64,000 nt of DNA, from the IMG/VR virus record IMGVR_UViG_3300028833_000111, positions 30,801 through 94,800 of that record. One strand, 5' to 3'. Origin of the DNA: a virus. Taxonomy: Duplodnaviria; Caudoviricetes. Position numbers and translations under genes: made by a program. Below, piece after piece: positions 61,036-62,179 of the stretch (the first letter of the stretch is position 1; the number at the start of each line of letters is the position of its first letter). A model generated the notes under the pieces. It worked only from the letters and a program-made list of their open reading frames with translations, had not been told where the DNA came from and searched no databases.

Positions 61036-61117
61036 GGCTCTATGGCGTAATTGGTAGCCGCTCCCGTCTCAAAAGCGGGTGTCGAGAGACGTGTTGGTTC
61101 GAGTCCGACTAGAGCTA
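61036..61117 (+). tRNA. tRNA-Leu(CAA)
   Basis: Acceptor GGCTCTA/TAGAGCT; anticodon arm CCCGT-CTCAAAA-GCGGG; long V arm; T loop TTCGAGT; A73. Confidence 0.92.
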
Positions 61118-61151
61118 CAACCAACCTTGGCAAAAGGTAAAATATAAAACA

Positions 61152-61287
61152 AGGAAGCTTACAGCAAAGTTAAGTTTACACGATGGAAATGCTGGATTAA
61201 TTTCCGTATGGGTTCGAATCCCTTAGAGACTTTAAACGGTCGCTTGGTGAAATGGTAGACACGGCGGTATAATTAAAATTCTTTCCT
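61152..61287 (+). ncRNA. Circularly permuted tRNA-Leu-like RNA (Y RNA/YrlA-like)
   Basis: Order is V arm, T arm (GGGTTCGAATCCC), closed acceptor hairpin AGAGACT-TTAAAC-GGTCGCT, D arm (GTGAAATGGTAGACAC); ends pair as AGGAAG/TTTCCT; no anticodon loop. Confidence 0.7.
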
Positions 61288-61295
61288 AAATAAAT

Positions 61296-61379
61296 GCGCT
61301 TATGGAGTAACTGGTAGCCTCGCAACACTTAGGATGTTGTGCTGAAATATGCGTGTCAGTTCGAGTCTGACTAAGCGCA
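61296..61379 (+). tRNA. tRNA-Leu(TAG)
   Basis: Acceptor GCGCTTA/TAAGCGC; anticodon arm CAACA-CTTAGGA-TGTTG; long V arm; T loop TTCGAGT. Confidence 0.92.
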
Positions 61380-61384
61380 CAAAT

Positions 61385-61551: not shown

Positions 61552-61590
61552 ATGAAGAATATAGTACGACAACAGCAACAACAGATTTAA
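61552..61590 (+). CDS. Gln-rich leader peptide MKNIVRQQQQQI
   Basis: ATG AAG AAT ATA GTA CGA CAA CAG CAA CAA CAG ATT TAA; upstream of attenuator hairpins and the tRNA-Gln genes. Confidence 0.85.
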   Translation: MKNIVRQQQQQI

Positions 61591-61593
61591 GTC

Positions 61594-61692
61594 GTATCAA
61601 CCATATGGGAACGGTTGATACAGATATTGTATTAGCCTTTCTCAACATATGTAAAAACGTTCCCATTAGTAGAAATACTGATGGGTTTTTTT
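61594..61692 (+). promoter_or_regulatory. Transcription attenuator (protector, antiterminator, terminator)
   Basis: GTATCAACC/GGTTGATAC (61594-602/61613-621); ATGGGAACG/CGTTCCCAT (61605-613/61658-666); CCCATTAGTA-GAAA-TACTGATGGG-T7 (61662-692). Confidence 0.85.
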
Positions 61693-61710
61693 GTAAGTAT
61701 CTGATTTAGA

Positions 61711-61782
61711 TGGAGTATGGTATAACGGTTATTACAAGAGATTTTGGTCCTCTTAATCCCAGTCCGACTCTGGGTGCTCCAA
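61711..61782 (+). tRNA. tRNA-Gln(TTG)
   Basis: Acceptor TGGAGTA/TGCTCCA (U1:A72); anticodon arm AGAGA-TTTTGGT-CCTCT; T arm CCCAG-TCCGACT-CTGGG. Confidence 0.88.
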
Positions 61783-61787
61783 CAAAT

Positions 61788-62024
61788 ATGAGTAAAGGGA
61801 AAAAATTCAATACTCCAAAGAAGTTTTGGAGAAAGATGTTGAAGAAAACAAAAAGACCTTGGTATGCTAGGCAATCATGGAGAAAGACAACTGCCCATGT
61901 ATTAGGAAGAAACCATAGTAAATTTAAATGGTATTTTAGGCAGAAAAAATGGTATAATGACAATTCTATGAAAAGAATGTCAATGAGGTTTCCAATGTCC
62001 CATGAAATATGGGGCTGGGATTAA
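61788..62024 (+). CDS. 78-aa Lys/Arg/Trp-rich protein between the two tRNA-Gln genes
   Basis: ATG at 61788; MSKGKKFNTPKKFWRK...EIWGWD*, fills the spacer exactly. Confidence 0.6.
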   Translation: MSKGKKFNTPKKFWRKMLKKTKRPWYARQSWRKTTAHVLGRNHSKFKWYFRQKKWYNDNSMKRMSMRFPMSHEIWGWD

Positions 62025-62026
62025 AT

Positions 62027-62114
62027 TGGGAGTTGGCCGAGTGGTTTAAGGCGTTGGATTCTGGTCCCAATGTAGATTAATAGTCTACCGCAGGTTCGAA
62101 TCCTGCACTCCTAA
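62027..62114 (+). tRNA. tRNA with Gln anticodon CTG on a class II (Ser-like) long-variable-arm body
   Basis: Acceptor TGGGAGT/ACTCCTA; D arm GCCGAGTGGTTTAAGGC; anticodon arm TTGGA-TTCTGGT-CCCAA; 19-nt V region; T arm GCAGG-TTCGAAT-CCTGC. Confidence 0.88.
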
Positions 62115-62136
62115 CAATGTATTTTTAGCATAATTT

Positions 62137-62170
62137 AACGTTAGATTCTTTTGAATTTAACGTTTTTTTT
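62137..62170 (+). terminator. Terminator ending the tRNA-Gln unit
   Basis: AACGTTAGATTC-TTTT-GAATTTAACGTT followed by a T-run. Confidence 0.7.
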
Positions 62171-62171
62171 G

Positions 62172-62179
62172 TATATTTG
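62172..62179 (+). promoter_or_regulatory. Bacteroidota -7 promoter element
   Basis: TATATTTG with TTTG about 18 nt upstream. Confidence 0.6.

Follow-up and report, generated by a model that had tools for sequence, protein, structure and literature searches.

A phage-borne tRNA with glutamine-type ends on a serine-shaped class II body is probably a glutamine isoacceptor

The 64,000-nucleotide stretch of DNA analysed here, hereafter the window, comprises bases 30801–94800 of a single 94.8-kb viral contig (IMG/VR record IMGVR_UViG_3300028833_000111) with 31% G+C, dense coding and the standard code. At positions 62027–62114 of its plus strand lies a tRNA gene that combines the anticodon CUG with a long, class II-type variable arm. 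In textbooks, the long variable arm of bacterial tRNAs is restricted to those for Leu, Ser, Tyr and Sec, and the arm is regarded as the feature through which seryl-tRNA synthetase (SerRS) recognizes its substrates. The gene is a real, folded tRNA, and comparison with its relatives makes it probable that the product, class II Gln(CUG), is a working Gln isoacceptor that reads CAG and has a Gln-type acceptor, anticodon loop and T arm on a Ser-shaped body. Ser-armed Gln tRNAs of this type occur in a large clade of rumen jumbo phages, where they are under clear purifying selection and seemingly keep Gln identity.

The program ARAGORN calls tRNA-Gln(ctg) at 62027–62115 (+), 89 nucleotides (nt) in length. 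The 88 nt from position 1 to the discriminator (62027–62114, +), delimited from this call, the Rfam match, the minimum-free-energy fold and family covariation, align with model positions 1–71 of RF00005 as a full cloverleaf at 50.9 bits (E = 1.7e-9), above the gathering cut-off of 29 bits, with a 15-nt insertion in the variable region; the score is the best among the four tRNA genes of the window. The minimum-free-energy fold of the RNA is a five-arm cloverleaf (−28.7 kcal/mol, z = −2.0). The 5′ strand of the acceptor stem (62027–62033, +) pairs with 62107–62113 to give seven base pairs, TGGGAGT/ACTCCTA, with U1:A72, G2.U71 and G3:C70, as read from the sequence and from the per-pair table of the family; the discriminator A73 is at 62114 and CCA is absent from the gene. 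The same two sources define a Ser-type D arm (62036–62052, +) with a 3-bp stem GCC/GGC, an 11-nt loop GAGTGGTTTAA and the pair G10:C25. The anticodon arm (62054–62070, +; sequence and ARAGORN) reads TTGGA-TTCTGGT-CCCAA and has the loop UUCUGGU, with the anticodon CTG at 62061–62063 providing U35 and G36, followed by G37 and U38, and with an A31.C39 mismatch in the stem. The same UU-NUG-GU loop and mismatch occur in the class I tRNA-Gln(UUG) next door. The 19-nt variable region (62071–62089, +), T-GTAGATT-AAT-AGTCTAC-C, which is supported by family covariation, consists of U44, a 7-bp hairpin (62072–62078 with 62082–62088, loop AAT) and, directly after it and with no unpaired base between, C48. 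The AAT loop contains no YUG, so that the arm is no copy of a Gln anticodon loop. The T arm (62090–62106, +), GCAGG-TTCGAAT-CCTGC, has a 5-bp stem and is identical in the class I tRNA-Gln(CUG) of locus L134. Every structural item that the initial annotation had listed for this gene was found in the sequence.

The composite nature of the molecule becomes apparent when the nearest neighbour of each segment is taken outside the class II Gln family. The acceptor stem together with position 73 is closest to the window's own class I tRNA-Gln (0.87 identity, as compared with 0.80 for phage tRNA-Tyr and 0.33 for tRNA-Ser(UGA)), and the T arm to the class I tRNA-Gln(CUG) of L134 (1.00). The D arm, in contrast, is closest to the tRNA-Ser(UGA) of the jumbo phage G002 (0.88), and the layout of the variable arm is also that of this tRNA-Ser, namely one base, the stem, and then C48 directly; phage tRNA-Tyr, unlike class II Gln, has two unpaired bases before C48. 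The pair G15:C48 and the GAGTGGTTTAA D loop likewise set the molecule apart from the Leu genes of the same cluster, which have GAATTGGTAGA-type D loops. G1:C72, G2:C71 and G73 are found in the tRNA-Ser(UGA/GCU) genes of the jumbo phages G001 and G002 (n = 4) and in none of the 10 class II Gln sequences. A fifth Ser call in G001, Ser(AGA) by ARAGORN, is dubious, with C1:G72 and A73. The segment-wise neighbours and the arm layout thus make 'Gln ends on a Ser body' an accurate description, and bear out the earlier proposal, made from the window alone, that Gln-type ends and anticodon loop sit on a Ser-type class II body.

Set against the marks of known tRNA groups, class II Gln has the YUG anticodon with U35 and G36 and the U1:A72 of bacterial tRNA-Gln, and departs from the E. 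coli set G2:C71, G3:C70 and G73, pair 3:70 varying across the family, and from the short variable loop of 4–5 nt. The Ser-orientation long arm, the 3-bp D stem and the extra D-loop bases of bacterial tRNA-Ser are present, while G73 and G1:C72/G2:C71 are absent. A73 and U35 would suit bacterial tRNA-Tyr, but neither the CUG anticodon nor the variable arm, in which C48 directly follows the stem, does so; A73 would suit tRNA-Leu, but A15:U48 and a Leu-type D loop are absent. In place of the 8/4 or 9/3 acceptor/T arrangement of allo-tRNAs there are a 7-bp acceptor and a 5-bp T stem, both backed by covariation. The combination of a long arm with an anticodon other than that of Leu, Ser or Tyr is the one that defines nev-/nov-tRNA-like molecules. 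Class II Gln therefore belongs to a known but rare kind, that of long-armed tRNAs with a non-class II anticodon.

A search pattern made of the D arm and a Gln or stop anticodon loop found two further 89-nt genes in complete or near-complete jumbo phages, G001 (409.5 kb, rated 100% complete; class II anticodon UUG) and G002 (317.5 kb; CUG), the latter syntenic with the window over 56.7–64 kb at 72–85% nucleotide identity. The same pattern applied to metagenome contigs, together with look-ups of homologues of ClpP, which is encoded about 4 kb upstream, added members with CUG (L080, L110), members with UUG (L093, L105 and L070/L106/L131/L132) and longer UUG forms of 91 nt (L133 and L135) and 92 nt (L137). 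The survey of homologues in related phages for which the initial annotation had called thus gave 10 distinct class II Gln sequences, from independent phage and metagenome contigs and with CUG or UUG as the only anticodons. In their alignment 95% of the cells are paired and 17 of the 27 pairs have changed on both sides, with compensatory pairs at six of the seven positions of the extra-arm stem and at one of the D stem; none of 500 shuffles reached the pairing and covariation values of the alignment, and slid registers were 30–46% paired, which puts the design well outside what chance would give. U1:A72, A73, G10:C25, U33, U35, G36, G37, C48 and the T loop are invariant. The acceptor pair 2:71 is G2.U71 in nine of the 10 members, and 3:70 is G:C in six, C:G in three and U:A in one. 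In the eight 89-nt members the stems drift, while the loop motif of the variable arm (TAATA) and the D loop do not vary; the 91- and 92-nt variants retain this motif and this loop only in part. The occurrence of CUG in four independent assemblies (the window, G002, L080 and L110) shows that the CTG is neither an assembly error nor a one-off mutation, the possible origins that the initial annotation had named. Taken together, the compensatory changes, the 10 sequences, the three arm lengths and the presence of an identical allele in diverged backgrounds indicate purifying selection and spread rather than decay.

Beyond these phages, the D-arm and Gln-loop pattern had 28 matches in cellular genomes (185,579 species representatives), none of which was a tRNA, and blastn with the tRNA region against GenBank phages gave a match to a Leu tRNA only and thus, within the sensitivity of blastn, no similar gene. 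Of 20 viral loci hit by a pattern derived from the anticodon arm, none lay within a tRNA gene, and these were dismissed as chance matches; a stricter pattern of variable arm plus T arm again returned G001 and G002 only. Searches for related loci with two neighbouring proteins gave no match for the 133-aa one and, for the 251-aa one, L021 and L022, which have only that gene in common with the window and carry no tRNAs.

Evidence for Gln identity also comes from the position that the gene occupies. The cluster Leu(CAA)-Leu(UAG/UAA)-Gln(UUG)-Gln(CUG) is conserved in synteny across the clade, and each of its two Gln slots holds either a class I or a class II gene. Both Gln genes are class I in L125, L127, L129/L130 and L134. 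In the window, G002, L080 and L110, Gln(UUG) is class I and Gln(CUG) class II. The arrangement is reversed in L133, L135, L093 and L105 and also in G001, where the class I Gln(CUG) lies elsewhere in the genome, and L131 and L137 have a class II Gln(UUG) with no class I partner within the stretch fetched. Nine of the 11 tabulated settings with a class II Gln, that is, all except L131 and L137, thus also hold a class I Gln of the other anticodon, and in these nine the anticodon of the class II gene is never that of its class I partner; no locus with two class II Gln genes occurs among those tabulated. In G001, from which all 44 tRNA matches were fetched, the class II gene is the sole UUG Gln tRNA. 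In the closest relative found, L125 (ClpP 91% identical), the place of the window's class II gene is taken by a class I tRNA-Gln(CUG) of 74 nt; the downstream terminator is the same, and the flanks are near-identical to those of the window right to both ends of the tRNA. Similarly, L127 and L133, with flanks 97% and 89% identical, differ by a 72-nt class I as against a 91-nt class II UUG gene, the swap being exact at the gene borders. The 91-nt gene is in turn 100% identical between L133 and L135, the flanks of which are only 71% and 54% identical, implying that class II Gln spreads as a gene-sized cassette. Cassette swaps of this sort are frequent in the clade. Since close relatives have an ordinary Gln tRNA at the same spot, the class II tRNA most likely still inserts glutamine.

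The use of the codon itself is in keeping with this. In an alignment of the phage's NrdD with 29 diverse homologues of at most 55% identity, position 330, encoded by CAG, is Q in 26 of 28, position 224 is Q in 21 of 28, and at position 136 Q is the commonest residue; over the pooled CAG columns Q makes up 55% of the homologue residues, and Ser and Tyr fall outside the eight commonest. A reassignment of CAG was rejected on account of these Gln-conserved columns, and CAG means Gln. CAG accounts for 25.6% of the Gln codons in the contig (181 codons). When compared with relatives that have two class I genes, neither CAG in class II CUG phages nor CAA in class II UUG phages is depleted. As CAG stands at conserved Gln columns and is not depleted, a strong missense decoder would be costly; a weak one might exist.

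The tRNA belongs to a compact unit, all of it on the plus strand and preceded by tRNA-Leu(CAA) (61036–61118) and tRNA-Leu(UAG) (61296–61380), both found by ARAGORN and RF00005 and unchanged in order in the syntenic relatives sampled. The unit begins with a 12-codon Gln-rich leader open reading frame (ORF), MKNIVRQQQQQI (61552–61590), which is kept in the eight loci compared (the window, L125, L127, L129, L133, L134, L135 and L067). It follows the pattern M..RQQQQ(Q)I, and its versions MKNIVRQQQQQI, MNNNIRQQQQI and MMNYITRQQQQI reflect small differences between loci. Then come a terminator-like hairpin with a T run (61662–61695), also conserved in relatives, the 73-nt class I tRNA-Gln(UUG) that is the partner with the other Gln anticodon (61711–61783; ARAGORN, RF00005), a basic, Trp-rich ORF of 78 aa with the C-terminus RMSMRFPMSHEIWGWD (61788–62024), the class II Gln(CUG) gene, and directly after it a second terminator-like hairpin (62137–62164) with a T run, which closes the unit (62137–62174). 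The ORF between the two Gln genes is present as versions of 67–78 aa in all eight loci, the window included; a Pfam search with the 78-aa form gave no match. The terminator after the last Gln gene is kept behind the class I allele of L125 and the class II allele of G002 alike. The leader ORF and the hairpin with its T run precede the first Gln tRNA in all eight loci, whichever class of Gln gene follows, and in four of the eight both Gln genes are class I. The attenuator is therefore not specific to the class II gene, and this context supports a regulation of Gln tRNA supply in general. It had been suggested in the initial annotation that a missense role would explain why the gene is kept behind a Gln-sensing attenuator; this argument is lost, because leader and terminator stand equally before class I pairs. 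Remnants of tRNA genes are also found in the array: the window has tRNA-Leu-like fragments at 61152–61287, and in G002 (L067, reverse strand) a class I Gln gene of which only the 5′ half is left (tgccctatggtgtaatggca) immediately precedes the Gln(UUG) call. These leftover pieces look like scars of cassette replacement.

As to the phage, the contig is about 30% complete according to CheckV, which identifies it as a fragment of a jumbo phage. Its NrdD has relatives at 88–92% identity in more than 120 sequence clusters; the contigs that carry them reach 425 kb, and many come from samples labelled as ruminant metagenome sets; cluster number, contig sizes and sample labels together outline a large rumen/gut jumbo-phage clade.

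How the tRNA might work can be outlined as follows. The transcript would be trimmed and CCA added, the complete relatives encoding a CCA-adding-type enzyme. The host Gln system would then charge the tRNA with glutamine by reading U35, G36, U1:A72 and G10, a short variable loop not being needed, and the charged tRNA would decode CAG as Gln beside the class I tRNA-Gln(UUG). The class II body itself is a cassette of gene size, which passes between related jumbo phages and takes the exact place of class I Gln genes. A phage-encoded partner synthetase was considered and rejected for the complete relatives: neither PF00749 (Glu/Gln-type) nor PF00587 (class IIa) synthetase genes occur in G000, G001 or G002 (the complete relatives and the window's fragment), so that host enzymes must charge class II Gln. 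Among the identity marks, U1:A72 is used by glutaminyl-tRNA synthetase (GlnRS), by the glutamyl-tRNA synthetase (GluRS) form GluRS2 and by the amidotransferase GatCAB, and U35, G36 and the 10–25 pair are contacts of GlnRS, whereas Ser identity in bacteria is supported by G73 and the acceptor stem (PMC9976931). Moreover, an amber tRNA-Ser of E. coli acquired Gln identity after changes in two acceptor pairs, 1–72 and 3–70, as the work of Rogers and Soll is summarized in section 17 of PMC9976931. This bench precedent concerns the very architecture of class II Gln and shows that GlnRS is able to use a Ser-shaped body.

Several points weigh against Gln charging pure and simple. The variable arm has precisely the Ser geometry, and SerRS depends chiefly on this arm and takes no account of the anticodon (PMC9976931), so some serylation of class II Gln may occur. 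The E. coli Gln set includes G73, A37 and G2:C71, in place of which class II Gln has A73, G37 and G2.U71; of these, A73 and G37 also occur in the clade's class I Gln genes. The Gln-charging route of the host may be either GlnRS or GluRS plus GatCAB. A BLAST search with the class I tRNA-Gln in 301 genomes from each of two phyla, around a Chryseobacterium and a Bacillota metagenome-assembled genome, returned short matches only, outside Gln genes. GatCAB rejects tRNA-Glu by the size of its D loop, and the enlarged D loop of class II Gln could cause difficulty where the host charges by the indirect route. Finally, any advantage of the class II body is wholly a matter of inference.

The Ser-like architecture invites the alternative that host SerRS charges some or all of the molecules with Ser, so that CAG would be read partly as Ser, whether as regulated mistranslation or as a bypass when Gln-tRNA is scarce. 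We regard this as rather unlikely. In its favour, D arm and variable-arm geometry match phage tRNA-Ser(UGA), the long arm is the main element of SerRS identity and the anticodon is ignored (PMC9976931), and nematode class II nev-tRNAs with non-class II anticodons are mischarged (PMC3333845). However, all 10 members have U1:A72 and A73 and lack the G1:C72 and G73 of the four phage tRNA-Ser(UGA/GCU), and it was by acceptor changes of this kind that the E. coli amber tRNA-Ser passed to Gln identity (PMC9976931). In addition, the gene replaces a class I tRNA-Gln exactly and is, in G001, the sole phage-encoded reader of CAA, and both CAG and CAA are used at conserved Gln positions rather than avoided; the support sought in the attenuator fails as well. 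Of the two options set out in the initial annotation, a Ser- or Leu-charged missense tRNA is thus disfavoured, as the acceptor lacks the Ser marks, the class I Gln gene is replaced exactly and the attenuator argument fails. Gln acceptance with a swapped body, the first part of the other option, is better supported by the exact replacement of class I Gln(CUG) in L125, the restriction to Gln anticodons and the missing Ser acceptor marks; its second part, an escape from nucleases or modifiers, is conjectural. Should the tRNA prove to be charged with Ser, no sense-codon missense tRNA encoded by a virus would have been known before it. A specific version, in which GlnRS and SerRS both charge the molecule and a fraction of CAG (or of CAA in the UUG relatives) is read as Ser at a dose set by the Gln-sensing leader, appears quite unlikely; if true, such dual identity would amount to virus-encoded, regulated sense-codon ambiguity. 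Charging by tyrosyl- or leucyl-tRNA synthetase is very improbable. A73, U35 and the class II body are Tyr-like, A73 and the class II body Leu-like; Tyr identity depends mainly on A73 and U35, and Leu identity mainly on A73 (PMC9976931). The acceptor end is 0.80 identical to that of phage tRNA-Tyr. Yet the two unpaired bases that phage tRNA-Tyr has before C48 are missing, Leu identity needs A15:U48 and a Leu-specific D loop (PMC9976931) where class II Gln has G15:C48, the Leu tRNAs of the cluster have very different D arms, and the population-genetic arguments raised against Ser charging hold here too.

Other explanations would deny the molecule a role, or its main role, in translation. It might be not mainly an adaptor but a decoy or sponge for an anticodon nuclease or another tRNA-Gln-targeting defence protein, or a regulatory RNA, which we consider unlikely. 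The TAATA loop and the D loop, invariant in the eight 89-nt members and kept in part in the 91/92-nt ones while the stems drift, could reflect protein binding, and the RNA ligase RtcB of the complete relatives makes tRNA damage plausibly an issue for the clade. Against this, the features required for translation are intact (the 7/5 acceptor/T arrangement, the T loop and a 7-nt anticodon loop with U33 and G37), the gene exchanges with ordinary tRNA-Gln in its slot and divides the Gln anticodons with a class I partner, and in one complete genome (G001) it is the sole UUG Gln tRNA. That the gene is a neutral chimera or a decaying gene, an accidental recombinant of array tRNA genes that is tolerated and unselected, is the least probable of the explanations considered. 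The array does contain tRNA fragments (window 61152–61287; the Gln 5′ half in G002) and undergoes frequent cassette swaps, but every stem shows compensatory changes, and 10 distinct sequences, three arm lengths and one allele that is 100% identical in diverged backgrounds are not what decay would leave.

As for the purpose of the Ser-shaped body of class II Gln, our best guess is that it alters recognition by something other than a synthetase. This might be a defence nuclease that cuts tRNAs, a tRNA-modifying enzyme, or a factor of the phage by which phage tRNAs are told from those of the host. Genes for a CCA-adding-type nucleotidyltransferase and for the RNA ligase RtcB are present in both complete relatives (G001:C1:107031-107438 and 169434-170654; G002:C1:129251-129670 and 103617-104807), which suggests that tRNA damage and maturation matter to these phages. 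Furthermore, several other isotypes of G001 and G002 show the long-arm design. Anticodons for Cys, Met, Arg, Thr, Lys and Trp are carried by long-armed tRNAs of 82–97 nt, the majority with a Ser/Tyr-like GAGTGGT D loop, at L058 445-529, L059 636-721 and 3996-4086, L064 424-520, L060 4863-4946, 5113-5195 and 10869-10950, and L065 1544-1633 and 2503-2588. Their discriminators fit the anticodon: U73 for Cys, G73 for Trp, U73 with G1:C72 and C2:G71 for Thr, and A73 for Lys, Met and Arg. That these other arm-bearing tRNAs keep their cognate discriminators argues that the long arm does not redefine identity in these phages, and their presence in complete relatives looks like a general phage strategy.

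Comparison with known systems helps to place the family. With class I tRNA-Gln (CUG/UUG) it shares the YUG anticodon and U33, U1:A72, G10:C25, the UU-NUG-GY loop with G37 and a Gln-like T arm, and with the class I Gln genes of its own clade also A73, the genomic slot, the flanks and the terminator; it differs by a variable hairpin of 19–22 nt in place of a 4–6-nt loop, by the 3-bp D stem and 11-nt loop, and by G2.U71 in nine of 10 members. With the tRNA-Ser(UGA) of G002 it has in common the D arm (0.88), the single base before the arm stem, the absence of any before C48, and G15:C48, whereas the acceptors (0.33 identity) oppose G1:C72, G2:C71 and G73 in Ser to U1:A72 and A73, with a Gln anticodon, in the family. 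The converted E. coli amber tRNA-Ser (PMC9976931) likewise unites a Ser-shaped body with Gln identity through pairs 1–72/3–70 and U35; it is, however, a laboratory construct with the anticodon CUA, whereas class II Gln is natural, conserved, phage-borne and directed to a sense codon. The nev-tRNAs of nematodes and the V-arm tRNAs of eukaryotes also join a class II structure to an anticodon outside Leu, Ser and Tyr (PMC3333845; PMC4300185), and the same combination characterizes the noncanonical V-arm-containing tRNAs, also eukaryotic, of Hamashima 2016 as cited in PMC5389517. Such tRNAs differ from the phage family in being eukaryotic, in bearing Leu or Ser marks and in being mischarged with Leu in vitro, whereas the phage family keeps the marks of the amino acid that its anticodon specifies. 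The allo-tRNAs of bacteria have long variable arms and anticodons unfit for Ser, and were likewise mined from metagenomes (PMC5389517), but they have 8/4 or 9/3 stems and usually G73 or U73 (Ser or Ala), as against 7/5, A73 and U1:A72 in class II Gln. A preprint on Lak megaphages lists 44 of the 75 tRNAs of a 596-kb phage genome as 'unknown or mismatch isotypes' (10.1101/356790). In full-text searches of the literature, no account of phage tRNAs that combine a class II body with Gln turned up. What is added here is the CUG form, the exact class I/II swaps, the sharing-out of anticodons, the segment-wise chimera and the other arm-bearing isotypes with cognate discriminators. The family offers a natural test set for the rejection or tolerance of a long arm by synthetases, for a possible role of the arm in protection from tRNA-cutting defences or as a 'self' mark, and for the possible use of such scaffolds as orthogonal tRNAs in engineering.

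A related design was encountered outside the clade. An unrelated 4.3-kb contig, L092, is densely packed with 13 tRNA genes that include their CCA and carries at 2283-2369 an independent 87-nt class II tRNA-Gln(UUG) with A1:U72, G2:C71, G3:C70, G73 and A37. This independent gene indicates that the class II Gln design probably arose more than once.

Some further tRNAs and genes came to light in the course of the analysis. Both complete relatives have a tRNA with the amber anticodon CUA (L059 12578-12654; L065 8847-8924), with a variable region of 7–8 nt and a class II-like D arm, which hints at TAG recoding in part of the G001 and G002 genomes. In the contig of the window, ORF statistics show no sign of TAG or TGA recoding. 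An 85-nt class II tRNA with the ochre anticodon UUA occurs on two metagenome contigs (L078 924-1008; L114 281-365), and ARAGORN reports a 96-nt 'tRNA-His(atg)' in two unrelated viral contigs (L008 4854-4949; L015 11430-11525). In one relative, the N6/N4 DNA methyltransferase gene beside ClpP contains an intein (L136 6227-8008), and many relatives of NrdD match as two to four stretches in much longer proteins, as inteins would give.

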